From Eledone cirrhosa (taxonomy: Eukaryota), in the NCBI GenBank assembly GCA_964016885.1, contig OZ024764.1, forward strand, positions 4,836,001 through 4,900,000: DNA of 64,000 bases, in the 5' to 3' direction. The first letter of the stretch is position 1, and the number at the start of each line of letters is the position of its first letter. The notes under the pieces are model-generated. The model did not search any database. It was given only the letters and a program-made list of their open reading frames with translations, and was not told the DNA's origin. The position numbers and the translations under genes are program-made. Below, piece after piece: positions 35,418 to 62,000 of this stretch.

Positions 35418-35450
35418 GAAAACCTGGTTTGAAACACAAAAGAAAGGGAT
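35418..35450 (+). CDS. Micro-exon 1 (33 nt, phase 2-2): KTWFETQKKG
   Basis: TTTTTCTCATTACAG|...|GTAAGT; paralogous flanks are conserved while the interior is divergent. Confidence 0.75.
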
Positions 35451-36780: not shown

Positions 36781-37284
36781 AATATGTTGTTAGCTTAACT
36801 AGATCATCAGAATATTTATATATATATATACTACAAATTATGTCCATAGAACCATTTGATAAGATATATACACCATTTCCTCTCCCAATTAGCATAATCA
36901 ACCACACAAAAAATCAATTAGACCAGGCTATAAGATTAAAAGGCACCTATGATAAAATAGTAGATAAATAAAAGACAGCATTTCAATAGCATGTGGAAAT
37001 CAATTAAATATATCGTCAACCATACACAATTAGGTATAAAATTAAAGTTAGAAGAAAAAATGCATATACACATACCAGGATTACGTTTCTACCCTTTAGG
37101 GTTTCGTTCGCATTTGGAAATATACTATCAAGGATAAATTCGATATAAATTCTATAAATTTATCAAGGATAAATTTATAGTATATTGCTCTGATTATTTA
37201 ATTTATTAATTCATCATTGAGCCACATCGTGAATGGTTGCCAAAAACATATATATCTATGACTTTGTCTAGTTTGTGTATATGT

Positions 37285-37385
37285 AAATCTTTATATTGAT
37301 TGTTCCTTATGTAGCACAGCCTTTCAGATTCCATCTTTGCGCACAAGTCTACAGCAAGCTGGTTGAAGAGTACTCTTGCACGGTG
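37285..37385 (-). mobile_element. Helitron RepHel fragment
   Basis: LFNQLAVDLCAKMESERLCYIRNNQ resembles the Helitron motif LFQQFxVDxYAKIESERLxYIRxNQ. Confidence 0.7.
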
Positions 37386-38902: not shown

Positions 38903-40343
38903 AGGAGAGAAAGAGTGTGAGAGAGAGAGAGTGAGAGAAAGAGAGGGAGTGAAAGAGAGAAATAGAGGGATTGAGAGAGATACGTTAAAACAATAACAGA
39001 AGGTCTGACTGGAGAATTTACTTTAGAATTTTAAGAGAAAAGGGGAAGGTTTCAGACTTCTGGAATTCCTTCACGAAAATGTCCTATATATCTGGAACAC
39101 AAACTTCAAAAAAATGAGACAACCACTTAATAACCTATAGATCATGTGAGCCCACCAGCTAGATAGATTTCATTGTTACCAGAAGACAGAGTGACTGTTA
39201 TAAACACAATGTCCCTCCCTAGTGAAGAATGCACCTCCCAAAATACCTTAGAAGACAACCTGGAAGAAAAGAGTAGAGATCAAAATCAAAAGGTCTTAAA
39301 GTCAATTTGGTAAAGACTAAAGTTCTAGTAAGTAGAAAGGAAAACTCGGCCCAGATCTCTTCAGGTAAACTGTCCTGCTCAGTGTGCAGAAAAGGAGTAG
39401 GTAGAAATTCCCATCCTATGTCCCATATATATATCCTATGTCCCATATATATATCCTATGTCCCATATATACTGTGAGAGGATTTAGGCATAAAAGGGAT
39501 TAGATTCAGTGTGCAGGAGTGCGATTGTTTTGGCATAGACATGTGATGTGTATGAAGGGTGACAGCTGTATAAAAAGGTGCCGAACAAACAAAGTTGACA
39601 GAAACCGTGGAGTGGGCAGGTCTAGGAAGACTTGGGATGAGGTAAGGAAAGCTGACTTTGTACAATTACACCTAGCTAAGGCAATGACACAGGATGGTGA
39701 CCTCTGGCGCTATGCACAATTATAGAGGACTACATCCACAATCCACCAGACATTTTCCCTACCAACACCCCACACAAGTTCCCAAACCTCACCATAAAGT
39801 GGTCCCGCTGCAGCCATGACAAACGTGCCCAGTCCACACTGTACAGTGGTCTTGTAGGTGTCCTGCCAAAAATCAATATTGGGCCTTAAAACCTTGAGTC
39901 CCTTTTGTTCTGTGTATGAACATAAATAATTGTTTCTACTTTTGGCACAAGGCCAGCAATTATCCAGTGCATTACTGGTACTTTATTTTATCGACCCCGT
40001 AAGGATGAAAGGCAAAGTTAACCTCGGCGGGATTTGAACTCAGATCATACAGGGAGGTAACTATGCTTCAAAGCATGGCGTCCGACCCTCTACCGATACT
40101 GCCAATCCACCGCCTGAACATAAATAAATAATTGTTTCTACTTTAGGCACAAGGCCAGCAATTACCTAGTACATTACTGGTACTTTATTTTATCGACTCC
40201 GTAAGGATGAAAGGCAAAGTCAACCTCGGAGGGATTTGAACTCAGATCGGAAAGGGACGTAACTAAATAAATAATGTAATATATATATATGTATGTGTGT
40301 GTGTATCTATTTATATATTTAACTATATTTTTTGTAATCACAG

Positions 40344-40385
40344 GACTGATACAAAGGAGAGTACCGCTCTAGAAAAGAATGAGGA
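40344..40385 (+). CDS. Micro-exon 2 (42 nt, phase 2-2): TDTKESTALEKNE
   Basis: TTTTTTGTAATCACAG|...|GTAAGT; only phase 2 is stop-free. Confidence 0.78.
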
Positions 40386-40600
40386 GTAAGTTTTAGTTTT
40401 ACATACTATCTAACCATTATTCTATCTGTTCCTTCCCGTCTCTCTCTCTCTTATATATATATTTATATATAGTAAGATGTATTATTGGTTGTGTAAAACG
40501 GTCCAATAAATTTTTGTTAGCAATATTAAGTCCTCCACGCTTTTGTATATCTCCAATTCCATTCAAGGGAACAGCTAGATGATGTAAAACGGAGTATTTG

Positions 40601-40702
40601 TATCAAAATGAAAATCCAAAGGCAAGGTAAAATTTCCAATCATTTTAATCAGGTCGTGATTGAAATGATTGGAAATCTTACCTTGCCTTTGGATTTTCAT
40701 TT

Positions 40703-40707
<5 letters not shown>
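40601..40707. repeat. ~50-bp-arm hairpin; copies at about 47206-47300 and 58945-59050
   Basis: TATCAAAATGAAAATCCAAAGGCAAGGTAA...TTACCTTGCCTTTGGATTTTCATTTTGATA. Confidence 0.9.
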
Positions 40708-40770
<63 letters not shown>

Positions 40771-40789
40771 GACTCCTCTTATAAACCAC

Positions 40790-41205
40790 GTTGGCTATTA
40801 TGACTCTCTCTTTCCCTCTCTATGTTGGCTATTATGACTCTCTCTCTCTCCCTCCCTCCCTCTCTATGTTGGCTATTATGACTCTCTCTCTCTCTATGTT
40901 GGCTATAATGACTCTCTCTCTCTATGTTGGCTATAATGACTCTCTCTCTCTATCTATGTTGGCTATTATGTCTCTCTCTCTCTATCTATGTATGTTGGCT
41001 ATTATGTCTCTCTCTCTCTATCTATGTTGGCTAATATGACTCTCTCTCTCTCTATGTTGGCTATTATGACTCTATCTCTCTCTATGTTGGCTATTATGTC
41101 TCTCTCTCTCTATCTATGTTGGCTATTATGACTCTCTCTCTCTATTTATGTTGGCTATTATGTCTCTCTCTCTCTATCTATGTTGGCTATTATGTCTCTC
41201 TCTGT
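40790..41205. repeat. Composite minisatellite ATGTTGGCTATTATGA(CT)n; copies at 47340-47525 and 59100-59360
   Basis: Read directly from the sequence. Confidence 0.9.
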
Positions 41206-41519
41206 TCAAGCTTTATGAAGTTAGTTGAACATCTTCAAAGTCCTCCCATATTCGCCTTGTCTAATATGCGTTCTTGTACCTGATTATTTCCCCCAAATCT
41301 CCTGGGATGTTATAAACCATGATGGCTACCTATCTCACAATTTCTCTCCTGCCCACCCCCTCACACCACCATAGTCTATTCGACCAATCAAACCTCAGAA
41401 ACATGTCCCCACCCATTACCAACCCCAACAAACTCTGCCATTACTACTACTTCTACTTTTCTTCTAGCCCTTACCAGCCCCAACAAACCCTGACATTATT
41501 ACTACTATTGTCCTTCTAG

Positions 41520-42948
41520 CCATGGGCTGAGGATAAATGGGGCTACCCCAAATTAATAAATGAATATGAATCCGCGAGTTACCAAGCACCCATGCAAAGC
41601 TTTAATTCAGAGACAGGAAGCATACACACCCCACTGCAAAAATTCACCCTTTCCCACGAGTGGTGGCAAATGCCCAAAACTCCGAGTTGGAACCATCAAT
41701 GTAAGCACAATGAAAGGAAGAGCAGGAGAAATTGTAGAGATGCTAGAGCGAAAGAAAATTGATGTATGCTGTGTGCAAGAGACTAGATGGAGAGCAGAGT
41801 CCGCTGGAGTCCTTGCAGGCAGAAGTCAGTGCTACCAATTTGTCTGGGTAGCAAATGACAACAGGATGGGAGGTGTAGCTATCCTATTAGCTGACAAATG
41901 GGTAGATAAGGTAATCTCAGTGAACAGGGTGAATGCAAGAATAATGAAACTTGGACAAGTCCTGAATAAAACAATTGCCACAATAATATCAGCTTACGCA
42001 CCCCAATTGGGGTTGCCAGCTGACTATAGCGGGGAATTTAGTTTAGAGGTCGGTGTCCACCAGGGCTCTGTTCTTAGCCCACTCCTGTTCGTTGAAGTAT
42101 TGCAAGCAATAATGGAGGTGATTATGACCGGATACCCATGGGAACTCCTATATGTGGATCATCTCACACTTATAGCCGAATCTATGGTGGAACTATACTT
42201 GCTCAGTATGTAGAAAAGGAGTAGGCTGGCTGCAAAAGGCTTTCCCCTCAAAATGAAAAGCAGACTGTATGATGTGGGTATACGAATAGCAATGTTACAT
42301 AGTAGTGAAACCTTGGCGCCGTCTGTGGAAGACTTGCATAGATTAGAAAGAAAGGAAGCCTGCATGCTCCGATGGATGTGTAATAGTAATATACGCGAAC
42401 GGCAAAGCATAAATGAATTGAGAGAGTGACTGAGCATAAGAGGAATGAAATGCTGTGTGCAGGAGAGGATGTTGCATTGGACATGTGATGCGTATGAAGG
42501 ATGACAGCTGTATAAAAAGGTGTAGAGCAGTAGAAGTCGATGGAAGCCGTAGAGTGGGGAGACCCAAGAAGAGCTGGGATGAGGTGATAAAAGCCGACCT
42601 TACCCAGTTGCACCTCTCAAAGGCGATGACACAGGACCGTCACCTCTGGCATCAAGCAGTAATACAGAAGACCTGACTCCCCAGGGCTACAAGCGGAAGT
42701 TGAAGCGTATGCTCCCACCCTCTCCGACTGTACAGTGGACGTATAGGCGCCACAGACAAAAAGCACCCAGGACTCACTGTAAATGAGGTTGGTGTTAGGA
42801 AGGGCATCCAGCTGTAGGAATCAAGCCAGAATCAGTTCCTGTATGAGCAAGACAAGGTCAGCTGAACAGACACTGCCCACAACAGGACAACCCGTCTAAC
42901 CCATGCTAGCGTGGAAGAATGGACGTAAAACAGTGATGATGAAGATGA
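41520..42948 (+). pseudogene. Internally deleted RTE (APE N-terminus fused to RT core, C-terminus and 3' UTR); copies at 47845-49095 and 59677-60927
   Basis: GTINVSTM, CVQETRW and SAYAPQ are joined directly to GVHQGSVLSPLLF. Confidence 0.88.
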
Positions 42949-42950
42949 TA

Positions 42951-45190
42951 TATCATATATGCCAGTGTACAAGTTGACATTTGGAGCCTAAAAATATCTC
43001 TCCAAAACCAGGGGTCGACTTGTCTGCTGAATATAGTATGTTACCTTTACCACTGAGGGGTAAACAGTGAAACTGCCTGCCTAACACTTGTTGTACACCA
43101 CTTACCATAACTCTAGCAACCCACCACATTTATTTCTACTGAATCTCATATTTGTTAAGTTTAATGTAGAGATTATAGTAATATCAATGTCTTGCTGTAG
43201 CTTATAGGGTAGGTTACTGTAGGGTAGGTTACTGTAGGGTAGGATACTGTCTGGTAGGTTACCATAGGGTAGGTTACTGTAGGGTAGGTTACTGTAGGGT
43301 AGGTTACTGTAGGGTAGGTTACCATAGGGTAGGATAGTGTCTGGTAGGTTACCATAGGGTAGGTTACGATAGGGCAGGATACTGTAGGGTAAGTTACTGG
43401 AGGGTAGGTTACCATAGGGTAGGTTACCGTAGGGTAGGTTACCATTGGGTAGGTTATTATAGGGTAGGTTACCACAGGGTAGGTGACCATAGAATAGGTT
43501 ACTGTAGGGTATTTTACCATAGGGTATGTTACCATAGGGTAGGTTACCTTATGGTAGGTTACCTTAAGGTAGGTTACCATAGGGTAAGTTACCATAGGGT
43601 AGGTTACCTTAGGGTAGGTGACCATAGTGTAGGCTACCATAGGTTAGGTTCTGTATGGTAGGTTAGGTTACTATAGGGTAGGTTACCATAGGGTAGGTTA
43701 CGATAGGGTTAGTTACCATAGGGTAGGTTACCATAGCGTAGGTTACTATTGGGTAGGTTACCATAGGGTAGGTTACTGTAGGTTAGGTTACGTAGGGTAG
43801 GTTACCATAGGGTAGGTTGCCATAGAGTAGGTTATTATAGGGTAGGTTACCATAAGGTAGATTACCTCAGGGTATGTTACCATATGGTAGGTTACCATAG
43901 GGTAGGTTACTGTAGGGTAGGTTACCATAGTGTAGGATACCTTAAATTAGGTTACCACAGGAAAAGTTACCATATGGTAGGTTACTGTAGGTTAGGTTAC
44001 CATAGGGTAGGTTATCATAGGTTAGGTTACCAAAGGGTAGGTTACTATAGGTTGTTACCATTGGGTAGGTTACTGTAGGGTAACATAGGTTACCATAGTG
44101 TAGGTTAATATAACATAGGTCACCATAGTGTAGGTTACCTTAGATTAGGTTACCACAGGATAGGTTACCATATGGTAGGTTACTGTAGGTTAGGTCACCA
44201 TAGGGTAGGTTACTATAGGGTAGGCTACTATAGGTTGTTACCATAGGGTAGGTTACTATAGGGTAGGCTACTATAGGTTGTTACCATAGGGTAGGTTACT
44301 ATAGGTTGTTACCATAGAGTAGGTTACAATATGGTTGGTTACCATAGTGTAGGTTACTATAACATTGGTTACCATAGTGTAGGTTACCTTAATTTAGGTT
44401 ACCATAGGTTAGGTTACCGTATCGTAGGTTACTGTAGGTTAGGTTACAATAGGGTAGGTTACTATAGGGTAGGCTACCAATGATAGGTTATGATGGGTTA
44501 GGTTCCATAGGGTAGGTTACCACAGTATATGTTACCATATGGTAGGTTAGGTTACCATAGGGTAGGTCACCATAGTGTAGGTTACTTTAGATTAGGTTAC
44601 CATAGGGTAGGTTACCACAGGATAAGTTACCATATGGTAGGTTACTATAACATAGGTTACCAAAGTGTAGGTTTCTATAGGTTGTTACCATAGGGTAGGT
44701 TACTGTAAGGTAGGTTACCATAGGGTAGGATACTGTAGGGTAGGTTACCAGAGGGTAGGTTATTATAGTATAGGTTACCGTAGGGTAGGTTTCCATGAAG
44801 TAGGTGACCATAGGGTAGGTTACTATAAGTTAGGTTACCATAGGGTAGGTTTCCATGAAGTAGGTTACCACAGGGTAGGTTAACATAAATTAGGTTACCT
44901 TAGGGTAGGTTACCATAAGTTAGGTTACCATACGGTAGGTTACCATAGGTTTGTTAAGGTTAGGCTAGGCTGGTCTACACGGTGAGTTAAAACTCACTTG
45001 TGACTGTAGTGTTTTAGAAGAAGTGTCTTAATCTTTCGTGCACCACTAAATTTTTTAACTATTTCCCCTGAAACTGCCTTATTTTGGGGAGGTTATCTTA
45101 TCAATCGAATAGCGTCCTAAATCTAAATTACACCTCAGAATTTTAGGGGCCACACTATGTACCGGATAGACTTGTACACCGGCATATATA
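42951..45190. mobile_element. Non-autonomous pogo/Tigger-like TIR element with an internal 15-bp array; copies at 49098-50952, 60930-62825 and partial 52198-52770
   Basis: Left end TATCATATATGCCAGTGTACAAGTT; right end GACTTGTACACCGGCATATAT(GGTA), complete in copies 2 and 3. Confidence 0.7.
43204..44965. repeat. 15-bp G-rich minisatellite (GGTAGGTTACCATAG)n; also 49330-50725, 52198-52620, 61163-62600
   Basis: Read directly; it produces the spurious VTYPM / VGYHR repeat ORFs. Confidence 0.97.
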
Positions 45191-45399
45191 TATATGCAAA
45201 GAGAGCGAGAGAAACAGCGGGAGTGAGAGAGATACATTAAAACAATAACAGAGGTCTGACTGGAGAATTTACTTTAGAATTTTAAGAGAAAAGAGGAAGG
45301 TTTCAGACTTCTGGAATTCCTTCACGAAAATGTCCTATTTATCTGTAATACAAACTTCAAAAAATGAGACAACCACTTAATAACATATAGATCATGTGA

Positions 45400-46400
45400 G
45401 CCCACCAGCTAGATAGATTTCCTTGTTACCAGAAGACAGAGTGACTGTTATAAACACAAAGTCCCTCCCTAGTGAAGAATGCACCTCCCAACATACCTTA
45501 GAAGACAACCTAGAAGAAAAGAGTATAGATCAAAATCAAAAGGTCTTAAAGTCAATTTGGTAAAGACTAAAGTTCTAGTAAGTAGAAAGGAAAACAGGGC
45601 CCAGATCTCTTCAGGTAAACTGTCCTGCTCAGTGGGCAGAAAAGGAGTAGGTAGAAATTCCATCCTATGTCCCATATAGAAATGATGGGTACACAAAAGA
45701 TGTTGTGGGATCTCAGGAAGGCTAACAAAGAACGTAGCTTCTACATGTGGCCAGTGAACAGGGGCAGGAAATATCAAGAGCTCTCGGGTTACAATCTCCT
45801 TCAAATACCCGAAAGTCTCTGTAGAGGTGGTAGATAGTTTCTGTTACCTAGGTGACTAAATCAGCAGTGGAGTAGGGTGGTCCCAAAACTCAGTAACAAG
45901 AGTGAGATTAGATTGGAGAAAGTGCAGGGATCTACTACTACTGCTAACAACAAAAAGTTTTTCCCTCAAAATGAAGGGCAGACTGTATGATGCAGGTATA
46001 CAAACAACAATGTTGCACAGCAGCGAGACCTGGGCACTGTGTGTAGAAGATCTGTAAAGATTGGAAAGAAATGAAGCCTCCATGCTTCAATGGATGTGCC
46101 ATAGTAATATATGCAAATGGCAAAACATAAATGTACTGCGAGAGAAATTAGGCATAAGAGGGGTTAGATGCAGTGTGCAGGAGAGGGATTGTTTTGGTAT
46201 AGACATGTGATGTGTATGAAGGGTGACAGCTGTATAAAAAGGTGCCGAACAAACAAAGTTGACAGAAACCGTGGAGTGGGCAGGTCTAGGAAGACTTGGG
46301 ATGAGGTAAGGAAAGCTGACTTTGCACAATTACACCTCGCTAAGGCAATGACACAGGAGGGTGACCTCTGGCGCTATGCACAATTATAGAGGACCTGCCC
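45400..46400 (+). mobile_element. Decayed RTE fragment; copies at 39150-39730, 51470-52198, 57704-58078, 63350-64000
   Basis: GLKVNLVKTKVL, GVGRNSILCP and GRSRKTWDEV remnants. Confidence 0.85.
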
Positions 46401-46957
46401 TCATAAATCCACGAGCTGAGGCATATATCTAGTATGTAACACCTTCCCCACCATCATCCCTCCCAAACACCTTCACCCCTATAACTACATCCACAATCCA
46501 CCAGACATTTTCCCTACCAACACCCCACACAAGTTCCCAAACCTCACCATAAAGTGGTCCTGCTGCAGCCATGACAAATGTGCCCAGTCCACACTGTACA
46601 GTGGTCTTGTAGGTGTCCTGCCAAAAATCAATATTGGGCCTTAAAACCTTGAGTCCCTTTTGTTCTGTGTATGAACATAAATAATTGTTTCTACTTTTGG
46701 CACAAGGCCAGCAATTAACCAGTGCATTACTGGTACTTTATTTTATCGACCCCGTAAGGATGAAAGGCAAAGTTAACCTCGGCGGGATTTGAACTCAGAT
46801 CATACAGGGAGGTAACTATGCTTCAAAGCATGGCGTCCGACTCTCTACCGATACTGCCAATCCACCGCCTGAACATAAATAAATAATGTAATATATATAT
46901 ATATGTATGTGTGTGTGTATCTATTTATATATTTAACTATATTTTTTGTAATCACAG

Positions 46958-46999
46958 GACTGTTCCACTGCAGAGTTCCGCTAGAGGAAACAGTGACGA
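46958..46999 (+). CDS. Micro-exon 3 (42 nt, phase 2-2): TVPLQSSARGNSD
   Basis: TTTTTTGTAATCACAG|...|GTAAGT; paralog of 40344-40385. Confidence 0.78.
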
Positions 47000-49900
47000 G
47001 TAAGTTTTAGTTTTACACACTATCTAACCATTATTCTATCTGTTCCTTCCCGTCTCTCTCTCTCTTTATATATATATATTTATATATACTAAGGTGTATT
47101 ATTGGTTGTGTAAAACGGTCCAATAAATTTTTGTTAGCAATATTAAGTTCTCCACGCTTTTGTATATCTCCAATTCCATTCAAGGGAACAGCTAGATGAT
47201 GTAAAAAAATCCGAAGGCAAGGTAAAATTTCCAATCATTTTAATCATGTCGTGATTAAAATGATTGGAAATCTTACCTTCCCTTCGGATTTTCATTTTGA
47301 TATATATATATATATATGACTCTGTCTCTTATAAACCACGTTGGCTATTATGACACTCTCTCCAACATAGAGAGCTATGTTGGCGATTATGACTCTCTCT
47401 CTCCCTCTCTATGTTGGCTATTATGACTCTCTCTCTCTCTATGTTGGCTATTATGACTCTCTCTCTCTCTATGTTGGCTATAATGACTCTCTCTCTCTAT
47501 CTATGTTGGCTATTATGTCTCTCTCTGTTCAAGGTTTATGAAGTTAGATGAACATCTTCAAAGTCCTCCCATATTCGCCTTGTCTAATATGCGTTCTTGT
47601 ACCTGATTATTTCCCCCAAATCTCCTGGGATGTTATAAACCATGATGGCTACCTATCTCACAATTTCTCTCCTGCCCACCCCCTCACACCACCATAGTCT
47701 ATTCGACCAATCAAACCTCAGAAACATGTCCCCCACCCATTAAAAACCCCAACAAACTCTGCCATTACTACTACTTCTACTTTTCTTCTAGCCCTTACCA
47801 GCCCCAACAAACCCTGACATTATTACTACTATTGTCCTTCTAGCTATGGGCTGAGGATAAATGGGGCTACCCCAAATTAATAAATGAATATGAATCCGCG
47901 AGTTACCAAGCACCCATGCAAAGCTTTAATTCAGAGACAGGAAGCATACACACCCCACTGCAAAAATTCACCCTTTCCCACGAGTGGTGGCAAATGCCCA
48001 AAACTCCGAGTTGGAACCATCAATGTAAGCACAATGAAAGGAAGAGCAGGAGAAATTGTAGAGATGCTAGAGCGAAAGAAAATTGATGTATGCTGTGTGC
48101 AAGAGACTAGATGGAGAGCAGAGTCCGCTGGAGTCCTTGCAGGCAGAAGTCAGTGCTACCAATTTGTCTGGGTAGCAAATGACAACAGGATGGGAGGTGT
48201 AGCTATCCTATTAGCTGACAAATGGGTAGATAAGGTAATCTCAGTGAACAGGGTGAATGCAAGAATAATGAAACTTGGACTAGTCCTGAATAAAACAATT
48301 GCCACAATAATATCAGCTTACGCACCCCAATTGGGGTTGCCAGCTGACTATAGCGGGGAATTTAGTTTAGAGGTCGGTGTCCACCAGGGCTCTGTTCTTA
48401 GCCCACTCCTGTTCGTTAAAGTATTGCAAGCAATAATGGAGGTGATTATGACCGGATGCCCATGGGAACTCCTATATGCGGATCATCTCACACTTATAGC
48501 CGAATCTATGGTGGAACTATACTTGCTCAGTATGTAGGAAAGGAGTAGGCTGGCTGCAAAAGGTTTTCTACTCAAAATGAAAAGCAGACTGTATGATGTG
48601 GGTATACGAATAGCAATGTTACATAGTAGTGAAACCTGGGCGCCGTCTGTGGAAGACTTGCATAGATTAGAAAGAAACGAAGCCTGCATGCTCCGATGGA
48701 TGTGTAATAGTAATATACGCGAACGGCAAAGCATAAATGAATTGAGAGAGTGACTGAGCATAAGAGGAATGAAATGCTGTGTGCAGGAGAGGATGTTGCA
48801 TTGGACATGTGATGCGTATGAAGGATGACAGCTGTATAAAAAGGTGTAGAGCAGTAGAAGTCGATGGAAGCCGTGGAGTGGGGAGACCCAAGAAGAGCTG
48901 GGATGAGGTGATAAAAGCCGGACTCACTGTAAATGAGGTTGGTGTTAGGAAGGGCATCCAGCTGTAGGAATCAAGCCAGAATCAGTTCCTGTATGAGCAA
49001 GACAAGGTCAGCTGAACAGACACTGCCCACAACAGGACAACCCGTCTAACCCATGCTAGCGTGGAAGAATGGACGTAAAACAGTGATGAAGATGATATAT
49101 CATATATGCTAGTGTACTATTTGACATTTGGAGCCTAAAAATATCTCTCCAAAACCAGGGGTTGACTTGTCTGCTGAATATAGTATGTTACCTTTACCAC
49201 TGAGGGGTAAACAGTGAAACTGCCTGCCTAACACTTGTTGTACACCACTTACCATAACTCTAGCAACCCACCACATTTATTTCTACTGAATCTCATATTT
49301 GTTAAGTTTAACGTAGAGATTATAGTAATATCAATGTCTTGCTGTAGCTTATAGGGTAGGTTACTGTAGGGTAGGTTACTGTAGGGTAGGATACTGTCTG
49401 GTAGGTTACCATAGGGTAGGTTACTATGGGGTAGGTTACTGTAGGTAGGTTACCATAGGGTAGGTTACTGTAGTGTAGGTTACTGTAGGGTAGGTTACTA
49501 TAGGGTAGGTTACTGTAGGGTAGATTACTCTAGGCTAGGTTACCATAGGGTAGGTTACTGTAGTGTAGGTTACCATAGGGTAGGTTACCAGAGTAGGTGA
49601 CCATAGGGTATGTTATTATAGGGTAGGTAACTGTAGGTTAGGTTACTATAGGGTAGGTTACCATAGTGTAGGTTACCTTATGGTAGGTTACCTTATGGTA
49701 AGTTACTATAGGGTAGGTTACCATAGTGTAGGTTACCTTATGGTAGGTTACCTTATGGTAAGTTGCTATAGGGTAGGTTACCATAGGGTAGGTTACCTTA
49801 CGGTAGGTAAGAATAGGGTAGGTTACCATAGGTTAGGTTACTGTAGGGTAGGTTACCATAAGGTAGGTTACTGTAGGGTAGGTTAACATAGGATAGGTTA

Positions 49901-52789
49901 TGTAGGGTAGGTTACCGTAGGTTAGGTTACTGTAGGTAGGTTACCATAGGGTAGTTTACCGTAGGTTAGGTTACTGTAGGGTAGGTTAACATAGGGTATG
50001 TTAGCATAGGGTTGGTTACCATAGGTTAAGTTCCTATAGGTTGTTACCATATGGTAGGTTACTGTAGGGTAGGTTGCTATAGGGTAGGTTATCGTAGAGT
50101 AGGTTACCATAAGGTAGGTTACCGTAGGGTAGGGTATCATAGGATAGGTTACCATAAGGCAGGTTACCATAGAGTAGGTTACCTTAGGGTAGTTTACTAT
50201 AAGATAGGTTACCATAGTGTAGCTTACCATAGGGTAGGTTGTTACTATAGGCAAGGTTACTATAGGGTGGGTTACCATAGGGTAGTTTATAATATGGTTG
50301 GTTAACATAGTGTAGGTTACTATAACATAGGTTACCATAGTGTAGGATACCTTAGATTAGGTTACCATAGGGTAGGTTACTACAGGATAGGTTACCATAT
50401 GGTAGGTTACCACAGGATAGGTTACCATAGGTTAGGTTAGCAATGGGTAGGTTACTATAGGTTGTTACCATAAGGTAGGTTACTGTATGGTGGGTTACCA
50501 TAGGGTAGGGTACCATAAAGTAGGTTATTATAGTGTAGGTTACAATAGGGTAGGTTTCCTTAGGATAGGTAACCATAGGGTAGGTTACTATGGGGTAAGT
50601 TACCATGAAGTAGGTTACCATAGGGTAGGTTAACATAAGCTAGGTTACCTCAGGGTAGGTTACCATACCATAGGGTAGGTTACCATACCATAAAGTAGGT
50701 TACCATAGGTTTGTTAAGGTTAGGCTAGGCTGGTCTACTCGGTGAGTTAAAACTCACTTGTGACTGTAGTGTTTTAGAAAAAGTGTCTCAATCTTTCGTG
50801 CGCCACTAAATTTTTTAACTATTTCCCCTGAAACTGCCTTATTTTTGGGGGTCATCTTATCAATCGAATAGCGTCCTAAATCTAAATTATACTTCAGAAT
50901 TTTAGGGGCCGACCTATGTACCGGATAGACTTGTACACCGGCATATATGGTATATATATATATGCATGGAGGCACATGGCTTAGTGGTTAGAGCATTGGT
51001 CATGCAATCGAAAGGTTGTGAGTTCAATTCTCAGACCGGGTGATGTGTTGGTTCCTTGAGCAAGACACTTTATTTCACATTGCTCCAGTTTACTCAGCTG
51101 TAGAAATGAGATGATAGGGACTGGGGTCCCTATCATTCCACTGCAAAGTGGTCGTGGAGGTGCCATGGCAAAAAAAGCACCTAGCACTCACTGTAAATGA
51201 GGTTGGTGACAGGAAGGGCATACAGCTGTAGAAATCAAGCCAGAATCAGTTCCCGTCCCACCCTTGCAAGCAGGGAAAAGTGGACGTAAAATGAAATGAT
51301 GAAAGAGAGATAGAGAGAAAGAGAGGGAGTGAGAGAGATACATTAAAACAATAACAGAAGGTCTGACTGGAGAATTTACTTTAGAATTCCTTCACGGAAA
51401 TGTCTTATTTATCTGTAACACAAACTTCAAAAAACAAGACAACCACTTAATAACCGATAGATCAAGTGAGCCCTCCAGCTAGATAGATTTCATTGTTACC
51501 AGAAGACAGAGTGACTGTTATAAACACAAAGTCCTTCCCTAGTGAAGAATGCACCTCCCAACATACCTTAGAATACAACCTGGAAGAAAAGAGTATAGAT
51601 CAAAATCAAAAGGTCTTAAAGTCAATTTGGTAAAGACTAAAGTTCTAGTAAGTAGAAAGGAAAACAGGGCCCAGATCTCTTCAGGTAAACTGTCCTGCTC
51701 AGTGGGCAGAAAAGGAGTAGGTAGAAATTCCATCCTATGTCCCATATAGAAATGATGGGTACACAAAAGATGTTGTGGGATCTCAGGAAGGCTAACAAAG
51801 AACGTAGCTTCTACATGTGGCCAGTGAACAGGGGCAGGAAATATCAAGAGCTCTCGAGTTACAATCTCCTTCAAATGCCCAGAAGTCTCTGCAGAGGTGG
51901 TAGATAGTTTCTGTTACTTAGGTGACTAAATCAGCAGTGGAGGAGGGTGGTCCAAAAACTCAGTAACAAGAGTGAGATTAGATTGGAGAAAGTGCAGGGA
52001 TCTACTACTACTGCTAACTACAAAACATTTTTCCATCAAAATGAAGGGCAGACTGTATGATGCAGGTATACAAACAACAATGTTGCACAGCAGCGAGACC
52101 TGGGCACTGTGTGTAGAAGATCTGTAAAGATTGGAAAGAAATGAAACCTCCATGCTTCAATGGATGTGCCATAGTAATATATGCAAATGGCAAAACATAG
52201 GTTACCATTGGGTAGGTTACTGTAGGGTAGGGTACCATAGGGTGGGTTACCATAGGGTAGGTTACTGTATGGTAGGTTACATTTCGTTAGGTTACTGTAG
52301 GGTAGGTTACCATAGGGTAGGTTACCATAGGGTGGGTTACCATAGGGTAGGTTACTGTAGGGTAGGTTACCATAGGGTAGTTATGTAGGGTAGGTTACCA
52401 TAGTGTAGGTTACTGTAGGGTAGGTTACCATAGAGTAGGATACTGTAGGGTAGGTTACCATAGGTTAGGTCACTGTAGGGTAGGTTACCATAGGGTAGGT
52501 TATTATAGGGTAGGTTACCATAGGTTAGGTTACTATAGGGTATGTTACCATAGGGTAGGTTACTATAAGGTAGGTTACCATACCATAGGTTAGGTTACCA
52601 TATGTTTGTTAAGGTTAGGCTAGGCTGGTTTACTCGGTGAGTTAAAACTCACTTGCGACTGTAGTGTTTTAGAAGAAGTGTCTTAATCTTTAGTGCGCCA
52701 CTAAATTTTTTAACTATTTCCCCTGAAACTGCCTTATTTTTTGGGTGTCGTCTTATGAATCGAATAGTGTCGTATAGGACTATCTGGCA

Positions 52790-53712
52790 TGTTTTCTATG
52801 GCTGGATGCCCTTCCTAACACCAACCACGTTTACAGTGTGGGGACTGGGAGGTTTTCACCATGTTAACTACACGGCCAATTTACAGCGTGGACTGTGTGT
52901 TTTATTGTCATGACACCTACACAACCTCATTTATTTAGGACTGGATGTTGTGTGACCAACATAATTTTACAGAGATGGGGGTGGGAGTAGTGGGGTGGGG
53001 GCGTATATTTGGTTAAGAGGTGCCTACTGACTGTAGGTTTCGCTTTGTACTTAGGCAAGGGTGGTCTTCTGTATTACTGCGTAGCGCCAAAGATCTCGGT
53101 TCAGTGACATTGTCTTGGAGAGGTGTAAGTGTGTGAGATCGGAATTTATCAATTCGTCCCAGGGTTTTCTGGGTCTGCCTACTCCGTGGCTACCATTTAT
53201 TTTGATCGCCCTGCACTTTTTTATACAGCTGTCGTCTTTCTTGCGCATCACGTGACCATACCAACGTAGTCTTCTCTCGAGTAAACAACATCTGATCCCT
53301 CTTATTCCTAATTTCTCACTTAGTTCATTTATGCTTTGCCGTTCACGTATATTACTATTACACATCCAGCAGAGCATGCAAACTTCATTCCTCTCCAGTC
53401 TGCGTATATCCTCTGCACACAATGCCCAAGTCTCACTGCCATGTAACATTGTTGTTCGTATGCAGGCATCATACAGCCTGCCTTTCATTTTTAGAGAGAA
53501 CCCTTTAGCGGCCAATCGTACAATGAAAAGAGCGTCTGTGATACTTTTACCTGACACAAACCCAAACTGCATTTCATCTAGATCAATTCTCTCTCTGATT
53601 AGTTGCGCTATTACTTTTTCTGTGACCCTCATGAACTGGTCAATTAATTTAATGCCTCTATAGTTTCCCCTATCTAGGGCATCTCCTTTACCCTTGTAGC
53701 AGTTAATGATGA
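52790..53712 (-). mobile_element. Internally deleted RTE with 3' UTR
   Basis: ORF 53051..53764 carries RTE motifs. Confidence 0.88.
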
Positions 53713-54123
53713 TGATATATATATAAAAGAAATAGGATTTCGCTTCAAGCATATCTTTATACAATATGTATAAATATTTTGTATCTCCAAAGAAATACGG
53801 TTTTAGGAAGCCTTAGCTCTGCAAACCCTGGGGGGCTAACGTCCTCTGGTGATGTCCAGCAGAAGCAAAGGGGACAACCGTCTATGCATTTCAGGCTTAA
53901 CTGGCCATCGTCAGGACAGTCCCTCCCACTGCTTGCGACTGCTGGCCAGTTAAGCGTGAAATGCATAGATGGTTGTCCCCCTTGCTTCTGCTGGACATCA
54001 CCAGAGGCCTTGAAACCCTAAGTCCCTTTTGTTCTGTGTATGAACAGAAATAAATAATGTAATATATATATATGTATGTGTGTGTATCTATTTATATATT
54101 TAACTATATTTTTCTCATTACAG

Positions 54124-54153
54124 GAACACCACTAATTTCTCCAAAACAGTCAC
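54124..54153 (+). CDS. Micro-exon 4 (30 nt, phase 2-2): NTTNFSKTV
   Basis: TTTTTCTCATTACAG|...|GTAAGT; one codon shorter than its paralogs; two N-X-S/T sequons. Confidence 0.75.
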
Positions 54154-54714
54154 GTAAGTGTTACCTTAACATACTGTCTAACCATTGTTTAATCTGCTCC
54201 TCCCTCTACCTCTCCCTTTATACACACACACACATATATACCCCTATATATATATGTATACACACACACACACAAATATATACACATATATACATATATA
54301 TATACACACATATATATACATATATACAAGCGAGACACGGCCTGCTGACCAATCTCGCCTTAAGTGGGACAAAACCGTCCAACCCATGCTAGCATGGAAG
54401 ATGGACTTTAAATGATGATGATATATACACACTGACACATATATATATACATATATATATACACATATATATACGCATATATTTATATATATATATGAGT
54501 TCAAGTCCGCCGAGGTTAACTTTGCCTTTCATCTTTACGAGGTCGATAAAATAAAGTACCAGTGGTGTACTGGGGTAATCGCTGGCCTTGTGCCAAAAGT
54601 AGAAACTATAATTATATATATATAACCAAAGATTAATATAGTTCGTTGATTACTCAACGAATACAGTTGTACAATAGATTAGAAGAACTCAACAGTGAAA
54701 GTTTTCCTGGACTT

Positions 54715-54986
54715 TTTAATATTAACAAATGAAAAATATTCTCATAATCAAAATATATACTTTATTATATACATTTCAAAGGTATATGACATACCTCTAC
54801 GGTCTTGATTCTTCAATTCCAGTATTGCAGTCACTGCCAATACTGGAATTGAAGAATCAAGACGGTAGCGCTATGTCATAATCATATATTTTGTCTGATG
54901 AGGACGTACTGAAAAAACAACAATATATATAATATAGTATATATTTTGATTATGCGAATATTTTTCATTTGTTAACATTTTGAATA

Positions 54987-54990
<4 letters not shown>
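54715..54990. repeat. Imperfect palindrome (Penelope-like terminus) containing CTGATGAG..GAAA at about 54895-54915
   Basis: TATGACATA..TCTTGATTCTTCAATTCCAGTATTG / CAATACTGGAATTGAAGAATCAAGA..TATGTCATA plus outer AT-rich arms. Confidence 0.75.
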
Positions 54991-55056
<66 letters not shown>

Positions 55057-55122
55057 AGGTAAAATTAATAATGAAAGAGTTGCAAGCCTTTAAAACATAT
55101 CTTTATAAAGCTCTTACATATG

Positions 55123-55165
<43 letters not shown>

Positions 55166-55999
55166 TATATATATATATATATATATATCATCATTATCAT
55201 TTTATGTCCGCTTTTCCCTGCTTGGAAGGGTTGGGCTCTCACCACCACTGGCCATGTTTTTCGTGGTCTTCCTTTTACTGGGATTTTTTAGCACCTCTTT
55301 ACCCAACGGTCATCCTCGATGCGCATCACTTGTCCATACCATCTGTGTTCTCTCCTGCACACCACAACTTATCCCCAGTTTCTCTCTCAACTCATCTATG
55401 GTCTTGTCGTTCACGCACATTGACACACACACACACACACATATATATATTAATTCTATTGACTGATTAATAGCTCTTGTTAATTTTAAAACCATTCTGT
55501 TGAGAGCTTAATTCGTTTTGTGATATTCTGCAATTTTGCAATAACACACATACTGAATGCATCCGCCAAAACTAAGGGTTGCCCCCCCTCCCCCCCCTGT
55601 GAAGCCCCACGTGGGTTTTGATAACGGTCAGTCCTTGGCTTAGCACTGAACTAAAAGCCTGTTGAGAAAGTGACTTCCTTGTTCGATCATCATACCAAAA
55701 GCTTAACATTATTTGTCTAAGTAGACAGTACTTGATTTAGGAGTTGCAGAAACCCAATACTGGATATTACCAACCTTCCAGGGGTCCGGGTATAATTTTC
55801 CATCATATTTTATTTGTTTTACTCGAATTACTTGGTCGTGTCAATGGCTGTGCGGATAATTGTTTAACCATCGTCTCAGTGTGTTTGGCCTTTTAACTTA
55901 TGTTGTTGCTCTAGTTCACTAGCTTCTATGGAGCGCTTGCCACACATCTCGGAAGTTGTTTTTCGTTAATTTCCAATAGCAGAAATGCAATTCTCGCTA

Positions 56000-56037
<38 letters not shown>

Positions 56038-56878
56038 GTATAAGGGATAACAAAATATCATTATAGGTAATCCAGGTAGAAGTTGTGAATACTCTGTATT
56101 GTGGTTAGTCTTAGTCTACGGCGTTGTTTGACTCAACAAGAGGTTTCCGTAGGTGGCAAGTATTTGAGTTCTCTTGAATTTCTATGTAAGTTTATCTTGG
56201 AGTAATAATATTGAAAGCGTGAAGAATAACATGGTCAACAGTACAAAAGAAGGTTTTTATTTACAGTATTAACAATTGTTTCACTGATTAAGTTGTCTAA
56301 AAATCGCTGAAAACTTAAAGCTGTGCCACTCAATCTACTATATATATTGGAAGTGGTCGGACGTTGTATATTTAAGTAAATAAGTAGGTGTAGTCGGATA
56401 AACGTCGAAACGGCTTGGTAGAATGCAGCGAAAATTTACACAGTTATGCAGAATTGTAGCAGTTAATGATGATATATATGTAAAAGAAATAGGATTTCGC
56501 TTCAAGCATATCTTTATACAATATGTATAAATATTTTGTATCTCCAAAGAAATACGGTTTTAGGAAGCCTTAGCTCTGCAAACCCTGGGGGGCTAACGTC
56601 CTCTGGTGATGTCCAGCAGAAGCAAGGGGGACAACCGTCTATGCATTTCAGGCTTAACTGACCATCGTCTGGACAGTCCCTCCCACTGCTTGCGACTGCT
56701 GGCCAGTTAAGCATGAAATGCATAGACGGTTGTCCCCCTTGCTTCTGCTGGACATCACCAGAGGCCTTGAAACCCTAAGTCCCTTTTGCTCTGTGTATGA
56801 ACAGAAATAAATAATGTAATATATATATATGTATGTGTGTATCTATTTATATATTTAACTATATTTTTCTCATTACAG

Positions 56879-56911
56879 CACCAAACCATCTACCAAGTAC
56901 GAGAATATTAT
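56879..56911 (+). CDS. Micro-exon 5 (33 nt, phase 2-2): TKPSTKYENI
   Basis: TTTTTCTCATTACAG|...|GTAAGT; paralog of 35418-35450. Confidence 0.75.
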
Positions 56912-58691
56912 GTAAGTGTTACCTTAACAAACTGTCTAACCATTGTTTAATCTGCTCCTTCCTCTACCTCTCCCTTTATACACACACACACATATATACC
57001 CCTATATATATATGTATACACACACACACACAAATATATACACATATATACATATATATATACACACATATATATACATATATACAAGCGAGACACGGCC
57101 TGCTGACCAATCTCGTCTTAAGTGGGACAAAACCGTCCAACCCATGCTAGCATGGAAGATGGACTTTAAATGATGATGATATATATACACTGACACATAT
57201 ATATACATATATACAAATATATATACGCATATATCTATATATATATATATGAGTTCAAGTCCGCCGAGGTGAACTTTGCCTTTCATCTTTACGAGGTCGA
57301 TAAAATAAAGTACCAGTGGTGCACTGGGGTAATCGCTGGCCTTGTGCCAAAAGTAGAAACTATATTTATATATATAAAACCAAAGATTAATATGGTTCGT
57401 TGATTACTCAACGAATACAGTTTTACAATAGATTAGAAGCACTCAACAGTGAAATTTTCCTGGAGTTTTTAATATTATTCAAAATATTAACAAATGAAAA
57501 ATATTCTCATAATCAAAATATATACTTTATTATATACATTTCAAAGGTATATGACATACCTCTACGGTCTTGATTATTCAATTCCACTATTGGCAGTGAC
57601 TATATATTTATAGGCAAAATGAATAATGAAAGAGTTGCAAGCCGTTAAAACATATCTTTATAAAGCTCTTACATATGTTATATATATATATATCATCATC
57701 ATCAGCAGCGAGACCTGGGCACTGTGTGTAGAAGATCTGTAAAGATTGGAAAGAAATGAGCCTCCATGCTTCAATGGATGTGCCATAGTAATATATGCAA
57801 ATGGCAAAACATAAATGTACTGTGAGAGGATTTAGGCATAAGAGGGATTAGATGCAGTGTGCAGGAGTGGGATTGTTTTGGTATAGACATGTGATGTGTA
57901 TGAAGGGTGACAGCTGTATAAAAAGGTGCCAAACGCACAAGGGTGACAGAGGCCGTGGAGTGGGCAGGTCTAGGAAGACTTGGGATGAGGTAAGGAAAGC
58001 TGATTTTGCACAATTACACCTAGCTAAGGCAATGACACAGGATGGTGACCTCTGGCGCTATGCACAATTATAGAGGACTACATCCACAATCCACCAGACA
58101 TTTTCCCTACCAACACCCCACACAAGTTCCCAAACCTCACCATAAAGTGGTCCCGCTGCAGCCATGACAAACGTGTCCAGTCCACACTGTACAGTGGTCT
58201 TGTAGGTGTCTTGCCAAAAATCAATATTGGGCCTTAAAACCTTGAGTCCCTTTTGTTCTGTGTATGAACATAAATAATTGTTTCTACTTTTGGCACAAGG
58301 CCAGCAATTATCCAGTGCATTACTGGTACTTTATTTTATCGACCCCGTAAGGATGAAAGGCAAAGTTAACCTCGGCGGGATTTGAACTCAGATCATACAG
58401 GGAGGTAACTATGCTTCAAAGCAAGGCGTCCGACTCTCTACCGATACTGCCAATCCACCGCCTGAACATAAATAAATAATTGGTTCTACTTTAGGCACAA
58501 GGCCAGCAATTACCTAGTACATTACTGGTACTTTATTTTATCGACTCCGTAAGGATGAAAGGCAAAGTCAACCTCGGAGGGATTTGAACTCAGATCGGAA
58601 AGGGACGTAACTAAATAAATAATGTAGTATATATATATGTATTTGTGTGTGTATCTATTTATATATTTAAGTATATTTTTTGTAATCACAG

Positions 58692-58733
58692 GACTGATAC
58701 AGAGGAGGGTACCGCTCCAGAAAATAATGACGA
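58692..58733 (+). CDS. Micro-exon 6 (42 nt, phase 2-2): TDTEEGTAPENND
   Basis: TTTTTTGTAATCACAG|...|GTAAGT; paralog of 40344-40385. Confidence 0.78.
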
Positions 58734-59047
58734 GTAAGTTTTACATACTATCTAACCATTATTCTATCTGTTCCTTCCCGTCTCTCTCTCTCTTTATATA
58801 TATATATATATATATAGTAAGGTGTATTACTGGCTGTGTAAAACGGTCCAATAAATTTTTGTTAGCAATATTAAGTCTCCACGCTTTTGTATATCTCCAA
58901 TTCCATTTAAGGGAACAGCTAGATGATGTAAAACGGAGTATTTCTATCAAAATGAAAATCCGAAGGCAAGGTAAAATTTCCAATCATTTTAATCACATCG
59001 TGATTAAAATGATTGGAAATCTTACCTTCCTTTGGATTTTCATTTTG

Positions 59048-59079
<32 letters not shown>

Positions 59080-62000
59080 GACTCTGTCTCTTATAAACCA
59101 CGTTGGCTATTATGACACTCTCTCCAACATAGAGAGCTATGTTGGCTAATATGACTATCTCTCTCTATGTTGGCTATTATGACTCTCTCTCTCTCTCCCT
59201 CCCTCTCTATGTTGGCTAATATGACTCTCTCTCTCCCTCTCTATGTTGGCTATTATGACTCTCTCTCTCTCTATGTTGGCTATAATGACTCTCTCTCTCT
59301 CTCTATGTTGGCTATAATGACTCTCTCTCTCTCTATGTTGGCTATTATGTCTCTCTCTGTTCAAGGTTTATGAAGTTAGATGAACATCTTCAAAGTCCTC
59401 CCATATTCGCCTTGTCTAATATGCGTTCTTGTACCTGATTATTTCCCCCAAATCTCCTGGGAAGTTATAAACCATGATGGCTACCTATCTCACAATTTCT
59501 CTCCTGCCCACCCCCTCATACCACCATAGTCTATTCGACCAATCAAACCTCAGAAACATGTCCCTCACCCATTACCAACCCCAACAAACTCTGCCATTAC
59601 TACTACTTCTACTTTTCTTCTAGCCCTTACCAGCCCCAACAAACCCTGACATTATTACTACTATTGTCCTTCTAGCTATGGGCTGAGGATAAATGGGACT
59701 ACCCCAAATTAATAAATGAATATGAATCCGCGAGTTACCAAGCACCCATGCAAAGCTTTAATTCAGAGACAGGAAGCATACACACCCCACTGCAAAAATT
59801 CACCCTTTCCCACGAGTGGTGGCAAATGCCCAAAACTCCGAGTTGGAACCATCAATGTAAGCACAATGAAAGGAAGAGCAGGAGAAATTGTAGAGATGCT
59901 AGAGCGAAAGAAAATTGATGTATGCTGTGTGCAAGAGACTAGATGGAGAGCAAAGTCCGCTGGAGTCCTTGCAGGCAGAAGTCAGTGCTACCAATTTGTC
60001 TGGGTAGCAAATGACAACAGGATGGGAGGTGTAGCTATCCTATTAGCTGACAAATGGGTAGATAAGGTAATCTCAGTGAACAGGATGAATGCAAGAATAA
60101 TGAAACTTGGACTAGTCCTGAATAAAACAATTGCCACAATAATATCAGCTTACGCACCCCAATTGGGGTTGCCAGCTGACTATAGCGGGGAATTTAGTTT
60201 AGAGGTCGGTGTCCACCAGGGCTCTGTTCTTAGCCCACTCCTGTTCGTTAAAGTATTGCAAGCAATAATGGAGGTGATTATGACCGGATGCCCATGGGAA
60301 CTCCTATATGCGGATCATCTCACACTTATAGCCGAATCTATGGTGGAACTATACTTGCTCAGTATGTAGGAAAGGAGTAGGCTGGCTGCAAAAGGTTTTC
60401 CCCTCAAAATGAAAAGCAGACTGTATGATGTGGGTATACGAATAGCAATGTTACATAGTAGTGAAACCTGGGCGCCGTCTGTGGAAGACTTGCATAGATT
60501 AGAAAGAAACGAAGCCTGCATGCTCCGATGGATGTGTAATAGTAATATACGCAAACGGCAAAGCATAAATGAATTGAGAGAGTGACTGAGCATAAGAGGA
60601 ATGAAATGCTGTGTGCAGGAGAGGATGTTGCATTGGACATGTGATGCGTATGAAGGATGACAGCTGTATAAAAAGGTGTAGAGCAGTAGAAGTCGATGGA
60701 AGCCGTGGAGTGGGGAGACCCAAGAAGAGCTGGGATGAGGTGATAAAAGCCGGACTCACTGTAAATGAGGTTGGTGTTAGGAAGGGCATCCAGCTGTAGG
60801 AATCAAGCCAGAATCAGTTCCTGTATGAGCAAGACAAGGTCAGCTGAACAGACACTGCCCACAACAGGACAACCCGTCTAACCCATGCTTGCGTGGAAGA
60901 ATGGACGTAAAACAGTGATGAAGATGATATATCATATATGCTAGTGTACTATTTGACATTTGGAGCCTAAAAATATCTCTCCAAAACCAGGGGTCGACTT
61001 GTCTGCTGAATATAGTATGTTACCTTTACCACTGAGGGGTAAACAGTGAAACTGCCTGCCTAACACTTGTTGTACACCACTTACCATAACTCTAACAACC
61101 CACCACATTTATTTCTACTGAATCTCATATTTGTTAAGTTTAACGTAGAGATTATAGTAATATCAATGTCTTGCTGTAGCTTATAGGGTAGGTTACCATA
61201 CGGTAGGGTACTGTAGGGTAGGTTACCATAGGGCAGGTTACTGTAGGGTAGGATACTGTCTGGTAGGTTACCATAGGGTAGGTTACTGTAGGGTAGGTTA
61301 CTATAGGGTAGGTTACTGTAGGGTAGGTTACTGTAGTGTAGGTTACTGTAGAGTAGGTTACTATAGGGTAGGTTACTGTAGTGTAGATTACTCTAGGCTA
61401 GGTTACCATAGGGTAGGTTACTGTAGTGTAGATTACCATAGGGTAGGTTACCACAGAGTAGGTGACCATAGGGTATGTTATTATAGGGTAGGTAACTGTA
61501 GGTTAGGTTACTGTAGGGTAGGTTACCTTATGGTAAGTTACTATAGGGTAGGTTACCATAGTGTAGGTTACCTTATGGTAAGTTACCTTATGGTAAGTTA
61601 CTATAGGGTAGGTTACCATAGGGTAGGTTACCTTATGGTAGGTTACCTTATGGTAAGTTACTATAGGGTAGGTTACCATAGTGTAGGTTACCTTATGGTA
61701 AGTTACTATAGGGTAGGTTACCATAGGGTAGGTTACCTTAGTGTAGGTTACCATAAGGTAGGTTACTGTAGGGTAGGTTACCATAGGGTAGGTTACTGTA
61801 GGGTAGGTTACCATAGGGTAGGTTACTGTAGGTAGGTTACCATAGGGTAGTTTACCGTAGGTTAGGTTACTGTAGGGTAGGTTAACATAGGGTATGTTAG
61901 CATAGGGTTGGTTACCATAGGTTAAGTTCATATAGGTTGTTACCATATGGTAGGTTACTGTAGGGTAGGTTGCTATAGGGTAGGTTATCGTAGAGTAGAT

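Follow-up and report, generated by a model that had tools for sequence, protein, structure and literature searches.

A 64,000-nucleotide stretch of Eledone cirrhosa DNA (the window: C25:4836001-4900000, where C25 is contig OZ024764.1 of assembly GCA_964016885.1, genome size 3.0 Gb) contains the beginning of a long tandem array of very small exons, which we call cassettes, located upstream of the constant exons of a neprilysin-like gene. Comparisons of these exons with their introns, and among the four copies of the gene, support amino acid diversification by positive selection, although one class of cassettes limits this claim. The explanation we favor, to which we assign a probability of about 0.5, is that roughly 100 frame-keeping cassettes have been positively selected while their introns recombined, and that they are spliced in varying multi-cassette sets to yield a repertoire of cytosolic N-terminal tails. 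The splicing mode, the first exon, and the function are points that we infer from the DNA.

A cassette array in a neprilysin-like gene

Near-identical flanks surround six short AG...GTAAGT intervals in the window, beginning at positions 35418, 40344, 46958, 54124, 56879, and 58692. The corresponding features are as follows (window positions):

35418..35450, + strand: cassette 1, type B, 33 nt, the start of the array; the array of paralog c2 opens with the same exon
40344..40385, + strand: cassette 2 (exon 2), type A, class A1, 42 nt, phase 2-2
46958..46999, + strand: cassette 3 (exon 3), type A, class A2, 42 nt
54124..54153, + strand: cassette 4, type B, 30 nt
56879..56911, + strand: cassette 5, type B, 33 nt, with a YxxPhi-type motif at its end
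58692..58733, + strand: cassette 6 (exon 6), type A, class A1, 42 nt
35418..64000, + strand: window portion of the cassette array, which continues past the window to C25:5399532

A survey of 854 kb around the window revealed 105 copies of the donor-side flank, of which 96 have intact splice sites, 5 have an altered donor, and 4 have a replaced acceptor region. The array occupies 528 kb (C25:4871418-5399532) with every cassette on the + strand, and its live members comprise 52 type A cassettes (42 nt) and 44 type B cassettes (30, 33, 36, or 78 nt), with 53 distinct sequences among the 96. The introns between them are 1 to 13 kb long (median 6.2 kb), and the splice sites are strong and nearly invariant. 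Blocks of three or six cassettes recur at 20 to 23 kb and are 98.6 to 99.9% identical; one 21.8-kb pair shows only 3 base differences, and the other pairs are 98.6 to 99.8% identical. Given these near-identical blocks, the number of cassettes could be off by about one block.

The coding character of the cassettes is evident from their frame. All lengths are multiples of three, a rule that 78% of 96 intron indels break. In the frame that starts at the second base (frame offset 1), the 53 distinct cassettes contain no stop codon, compared to 39 and 20 in the other two frames. At least 18 of the 53 acquired stops in each of 2,000 shuffling runs, and none of 5,000 shuffles of 22 class representatives was stop-free. 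Every cassette has phase 2-2, every pairing of an exon end with an exon start is stop-free, and the 96 live cassettes concatenated in order form 1,274 codons lacking a stop. Nine of the 105 cassettes carry a damaged splice site, resulting from four events, and no frameshift or stop is present in any live cassette.

Downstream of the array is a single-copy transmembrane (TM) exon (C25:5413283-5413395), which opens with the one base that completes the phase-2 codon of the cassettes. Of the constant exons scored, it alone encodes a hydrophobic segment of 19 residues (KD hydropathy of 2.3 to 2.9). It is followed by 17 identified M13 ectodomain exons (C25:5416317-5629518) that include NAFY, HKIFH, and ENIAD motifs. 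In the window gene, each of the 18 constant exons located has an open frame; the model lacks at least one exon, a constant one between ENIAD and the next exon located. Four of the exons match PF05649 or PF01431 (Peptidase_M13_N and Peptidase_M13) in gene order with E values of 4e-5 to 0.017, each of these exon-wise matches (22 to 35 amino acids) being below the whole-protein cut-off. A genome profile scan gave M13 matches above the cut-off at all four loci of the subfamily, and the last exon matches neprilysin structures in the PDB (E value of 1e-4). By these sequence matches, the gene is a divergent member of the M13 (neprilysin-like) family. Two other exon queries had no match in the PDB, and protein searches using single exons found no relative, nor did an Atlas search at 0.9 give a match, although the short queries (41 to 59 amino acids) make these blanks weak. 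A profile search with the N3 exon returned one match, to a repetitive protein, which was judged spurious.

With one hydrophobic exon before the M13_N exon and seven sequons in the TM exon or C-terminal of it, the predicted layout is that of a type II membrane protein. The cassettes are thus predicted, from M13 topology, to encode a cytosolic N-terminal tail. The initial annotation had likened the fast-changing exons to toxin, immune, and gamete-recognition genes. The excess divergence of the exons indeed agrees with that signature, but the layout rules out a secreted toxin, as the cassettes precede the TM segment of an M13 protein.

Exactly four copies of this subfamily were found in the genome:

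c1, window gene on C25, + strand: 105 cassettes, zinc motif HKIFH
c2, 7.16-7.33 Mb, minus strand: 6 cassettes, HEIFH
c3, 25.04-25.35 Mb: 9 cassettes, HEIFH
c4, 7.49-7.55 Mb: 1 cassette, HQIFH

The third zinc ligand (ENIAD) and NAFY are present in all four paralogs. The catalytic Glu of HExxH is retained in c2 and c3 but is replaced by Lys in c1 and by Gln in c4, and therefore c1 and c4 are predicted to be inactive; by its motif, c1 is unlikely to be an active M13 peptidase. The c2 locus (C25:7150000-7335000) is a copy of c1 in inverted orientation, with introns that differ by 0.7%; its upstream block is duplicated, and of the cassette types it has just the first and the last. It may represent either a paralog whose array is missing its middle part or the second haplotype. 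In c1, the intron between the NAFY and zinc motif exons (C25:5453998-5618005) extends over 164 kb and consists mostly of a 46-bp satellite (3,277 matching units); the equivalent intron is about 11 kb in c2 and about 4 kb in c4. Family scans gave further M13 matches in a cluster of three genes at C24:7.50-7.83 Mb, as well as on C3, on C2, and at C25:24978256.

Other structural features accompany the array. The 78-nt cassettes (C25:4952553, 4968128, 4985029, 5066424, and 5306123) look like two joined B exons, the first of 30 nt, and the 15 nt separating them resemble the former acceptor. A hairpin-forming repeat lies directly upstream of B cassettes (window 53843-54007 and 56600-56764). A dispersed repeat also occurs as an inverted pair that follows B and precedes A cassettes. 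Cassettes could be looped out if such copies paired with each other. A 15-bp minisatellite of TAGGT-like units occurs within the duplicated introns (window 43204-44949, 49351-50667, and 61183-62563). Rfam yielded no matches across window positions 34000-60000.

Divergence of the exons and recombination of their flanks

The observation that drew attention to this locus was a report, in the initial annotation, of almost exclusively nonsynonymous change among exons 2, 3, and 6 next to transposable element DNA that is about 99% identical. Our recount gives exactly the same figures. Exons 2 and 6 differ at 5 of 42 nt, with five nonsynonymous codon changes (K>E, S>G, L>P, K>N, and E>D) and no synonymous change. 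Exons 2 and 3 differ at 12 of 42 nt, changing 10 of 13 codons, again with none synonymous, and exons 3 and 6 also differ at 12 of 42 nt, with nine nonsynonymous codons and one synonymous codon. Flanking sequences up to 80 nt from the window cassettes differ by 0 to 4%. The transposable element used for comparison is the following:

41560..42210, + strand: internally deleted long interspersed nuclear element (LINE) fragment (endonuclease and reverse transcriptase pieces) in a duplicated intron, with copies at 47884 and 59716

Its RTE pseudo-open reading frame differs at 4 of 217 amino acids between the first two copies and at 2 of 217 between the last two, as originally counted.

To assess selection, we pooled 48 copies of the alignable 42-nt classes A1 to A3. 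These copies contain 29 extra alleles in 42 exon sites, compared to 84 in 1,713 sites of shared intron. A per-window divergence plot had been proposed as a check, and no intronic window rivals the exon: the highest of 1,507 intronic 42-nt windows has 7 extra alleles. For the 42-nt class, 25 nonsynonymous changes on 28.7 sites were counted versus 1.4 expected at the intron rate, and 2 synonymous changes on 10.3 sites versus 0.5 expected. On 18 of the 19 edges of a spanning tree, there are 38.5 nonsynonymous versus 3.5 synonymous steps (omega 3.9, P = 0.007), and omega is 2.1 to 3.0 when the longest, saturated edge is retained. The synonymous divergence (pS) of type A is 0.017, equal to that of its flanks (0.017), whereas its nonsynonymous divergence (pN) is 0.057.

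The constant exons also diverge in this manner. In the five paralog pairs other than c1-c2, the TM exon has a pN of 0.29 to 0.44 versus 0.04 to 0.07 for introns, differing 5- to 12-fold more than the introns do, and its indels keep the frame. Ectodomain pN exceeds the intron distance in five of six paralog pairs (P = 2e-5 to 4e-4) while pS equals it, the c1-c2 pair being too close. For c1-c3, for example, pN is 0.079 (P = 1.5e-4), pS is 0.054, and the intron distance is 0.050. Positive selection, which had been proposed from the three window exons, is thus supported by the pooled tests on type A cassettes, the TM exon, and the ectodomain.

Gene conversion of the introns had been suggested as a helper process, and 16 to 49% of flank single-nucleotide polymorphism (SNP) pairs do fail the four-gamete test. 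Specifically, failures were found for 180 of 616 upstream-downstream SNP pairs in type B and for 37 of 75 distant pairs in type A, and one exon class can occur on several flank haplotypes. By these patterns the flanks are mosaic, pointing to ectopic recombination. The flanks are therefore likely to be younger than the exon classes, and much of the elevated synonymous change can probably be put down to this age difference. By flank distance, c4 and types A and B split at about 18 to 20%, and c1 and c3 are separated by about 7%. Among type B codons for the same residue, synonymous differences number 74 of 893 at the 3' end and 93 of 481 at the 5' end, which is harder to align. The synonymous level of this class is somewhat above that between c1 and c3, so local hypermutation or slippage may have played some part.

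Several findings weigh against the explanation that we favor, and some of them concern selection itself. The differences in the RTE pseudo-open reading frame are likewise all nonsynonymous (4 of 4 nt and 2 of 2 nt), so the lack of synonymous change in a single pair says little and the pooled tests must carry the claim. Type B cassettes give an omega of only 0.81 on 18 short edges, and pooling types A and B gives 1.25 (P = 0.25). On these short edges, type B pS is 0.080 versus 0.0056 for the flanks, although pS is inflated because the edges were selected for having a difference; even so, B flanks have only 0.09 to 0.10 extra alleles per site. Since both nonsynonymous and synonymous changes are raised, selection alone does not explain the 30- to 36-nt class, and positive selection is not indicated for type B. 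In the ectodomain, pN differs significantly from pS in only one of the six pairs.

Splicing, first exon, and alternative explanations

According to the favored explanation, a single ancestral 42-nt juxtamembrane exon, as in c4, would have been duplicated into types A and B, and the array would have grown by unequal crossing-over, giving the 20- to 23-kb higher-order repeats. Diverged exons would resist conversion and remain as islands while their flanks were homogenized, and transcripts would carry several cassettes together in varying sets. The tolerance of splice site losses (four independent events) without frame errors fits multi-cassette transcripts, because a bad frame would spoil many of them whereas skipping would be harmless. 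A YxxPhi sorting-type motif is found in 16 of 33 distinct B peptides, and the tails also have acidic S/T runs. By analogy to ECE-1, tail variants could alter protein sorting.

A candidate for the first coding exon comes from a dispersed repeat, of which the window holds one copy:

32922..33020, + strand: truncated copy of a dispersed repeat, whose c3 and c4 equivalent extends into an ATG and a phase-2 GTAAGT donor

In c3 and c4 this repeat supplies the ATG and the phase-2 donor, and the two copies carry different indels that both keep the phase. Where c3 and c4 have the candidate donor GTAAGT, four further copies of the repeat have GTAAGC or GCAAGC. From these sequences, the repeat seems to have been exapted as the first coding exon of c3 and c4. 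Consecutive cassette splicing would create an ATG at 29 of 95 junctions, and a start codon formed in this way is a possibility only.

We considered two other ways in which the cassettes could be used. If all live cassettes were included together, the product would have one low-complexity tail of about 1,270 amino acids, rich in T, E, S, N, K, and D and expanding and contracting in the way of a coding variable-number tandem repeat or a mucin repeat, with diversity residing between the repeats rather than between transcripts. The stop-free concatenation in order, the strong splice sites, the absence of frame errors, and the variation in array size among paralogs (1, 6, 9, and 105) would all suit such a protein. 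However, exons of 30 to 42 nt within introns of 1 to 13 kb are often skipped, and the ends of B cassettes resemble the juxtamembrane exon of c2, c3, and c4, as would suit direct joining to the TM exon; we therefore regard full inclusion as unlikely. Strict choice of one cassette, or of one A and one B, per transcript would instead produce a single short tail in the manner of Dscam. This arrangement would agree with the lone cassette of c4, with the sorting-type motifs of B peptides, and with the ECE-1 isoforms, described as differing only in their cytosolic N-termini (PMC2567069). It is nevertheless a doubtful proposition, since the reverse-complement matches to the shared flanks arose only via dispersed repeats and no single-copy complement that might act as a docking site was found, and since splice-dead cassettes are tolerated, frame errors are absent, and exact duplicates are numerous (53 distinct of 96).

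The origin of the exon divergence could also lie elsewhere. Hypermutation confined to exons, for example by cDNA-templated conversion or local slippage, is suggested by the raised (if inflated) pS of type B, by 11 purely synonymous codon changes in that type, some with 0 of 674 flank differences, by variation that begins at the first exon base and stops at the last, and by a TM exon pS of 0.24 versus an intron distance of 0.04 for c1-c3. On the other side, pS equals the flank level in type A and the intron level in the ectodomain, and flank mosaicism accounts for exons older than their flanks. Moreover, A-G and C-T changes in cassettes are similarly frequent (23 versus 19), so that no ADAR- or editing-type A>G bias is seen. 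Cassette flanks occur genome-wide only at c1 to c4, with no donor template or spacer source elsewhere, and class A4 has no donor copy outside the array (4 of 4 genome matches lie inside). We consequently view hypermutation as very unlikely. Finally, part of the array could be an assembly artefact, as one might suspect from the repeat pair with 3 base differences and from the 0.7% distance between c1 and c2 introns, which could be two haplotypes, or the region could be decaying and no longer expressed, as the loss from c1 of the catalytic Glu and of the candidate ATG exon might imply. Sequencing error cannot yield 53 distinct stop-free variants, though, the other repeat pairs are less alike, and all constant exons found are open in c1. 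In addition, contigs from public runs (three runs of one sample, possibly the source) cover cassette 6 at a depth of 69 to 222, versus 3 to 15 for many other contigs, and carry the majority letter at 58708. Most of the public-run contigs on the locus are dispersed repeats, and no exon-exon joint was seen among the matches listed, as expected of DNA. Together these observations make artefact or decay highly improbable.

Returning to multi-cassette splicing of selected exons, the remaining points on the unfavorable side concern the gene itself. No start codon could be located for c1: the candidate ATG exon seen in c3 and c4 has been deleted from both c1 and c2, and a scan of 35 kb yielded nine distinct ATG-plus-donor candidates for c1, none of which was singled out. 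In c1, the donor of the first M13_N exon is weakened (gtatct), this exon carries a Cys>Phe change, and the gene spans the 164-kb satellite intron, so c1 might be decaying. The rough expectation for live cassettes, namely 17 frameshifts and 2 stops, depends for its frameshift figure on an approximate indel rate. It is also unusual for a cytosolic tail to be positively selected, and the present evidence does not name the partner of this tail.

The selective agent is the least certain component of our explanation. A tentative suggestion, made by analogy to tetherin, is that an antagonist, likely from a pathogen, binds the tail and the TM segment; gamete recognition or a gland product may be involved instead. 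It is conceivable, but rather unlikely, that combinatorial cytosolic tails bearing sorting signals, phosphorylation sites, or decoy epitopes on a catalytically dead neprilysin constitute a recognition or defence receptor in an arms race that is still under way. If so, the locus would be a molecular diversity generator of its own, based on tandem alternative exons and roughly double the Dscam exon 6 array in size.

Comparison with known exon arrays and M13 proteins

Known large arrays of alternative exons, such as those of arthropod Dscam and flatworm micro-exon genes (MEGs), vary extracellular or secreted sequence. The array described here, of about 100 exons, is of recent origin in a peptidase family and varies a predicted cytosolic tail on a copy lacking the catalytic residue. 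The locus also allows two explanations of fast exons to be told apart, namely selection (type A, the TM exon, and the ectodomain) and intron homogenization (type B). Standard gene predictors are likely to miss or split such a gene. In conotoxin and venom PLA2 genes, exons likewise outpace flanking introns, and some classes also show elevated change at synonymous sites, but there the exons belong to separate genes and code for mature toxins that are secreted.

Among the titles and abstract openings listed in literature searches, there was no M13 gene with an exon array. An octopus-restricted gene of Octopus bimaculoides (obimac0010569/LOC115219258) is described as having a C-terminal M13 domain and a gene model split in two, and it marks one class of optic-lobe neurons (bioRxiv 10.1101/2022.06.11.495763; PMC9815951). 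Our comparison to it is by description only, and no exon array figures in that description (bioRxiv 10.1101/2022.06.11.495763). Octopus transcriptomes are reported to include neprilysin homologs (PMC12607849, PMC12919962), with no link shown to the c1 to c4 subfamily in the passages concerned.

The 96 live cassettes, at 30 to 78 nt, resemble the exons described for Schistosoma MEGs and VAL-6 in being many, tiny, and symmetrical, with long introns, high dN/dS, and transposon-rich surroundings (PMC4350168, PMC10526429), and VAL-6 also joins a microexon stretch to a known domain (PMC4350168). The products of MEGs are secreted and, according to these descriptions, confined to platyhelminths (PMC4350168, PMC10526429). 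The Eledone array, in contrast, consists of recent tandem copies of one exon, is placed before a TM anchor, is predicted to be cytosolic, and has M13 as its partner domain. Its coding region is not mostly microexons with a secreted product, since the array leads into a constant TM exon and the M13 ectodomain.

Insect Dscam1 provides the precedent for tandemly duplicated, same-phase alternative exons between constant exons (PMC1397879). The Eledone cassettes are arranged in this way, although no constant exon upstream of the array was located for c1. Fly Dscam1 exon 6 has 48 variants (PMC1397879), compared to 53 distinct and 96 live cassettes in Eledone. The Dscam1 variants encode extracellular immunoglobulin parts and are mutually exclusive (PMC1397879), whereas the Eledone exons have 10 to 26 codons and lie among introns that are 95 to 99% alike within a type.

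The constant part of the gene is most comparable to neprilysin and ECE-1 (structures 1dmt and 3dwb), with which it shares the type II layout, the M13_N and M13 domains, and the NAFY and ENIAD motifs. It differs from them by the Glu to Lys change in c1 and Glu to Gln change in c4, and by the absence of the C-terminal Cys of neprilysin. ECE-1 is described as having four isoforms, made from alternative promoters, that differ only in the cytosolic N-terminus and are localized differently (PMC2567069), whereas Eledone c1 has about 100 internal cassettes, with the positive selection discussed above. Tetherin (BST-2) is likewise a type II protein with positive selection in its cytosolic tail and TM segment, which viral antagonists are reported to drive (PMC3087111). 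It is an unrelated protein with few selected sites and no array as described there, and it thus serves as an analogy only (PMC3087111).

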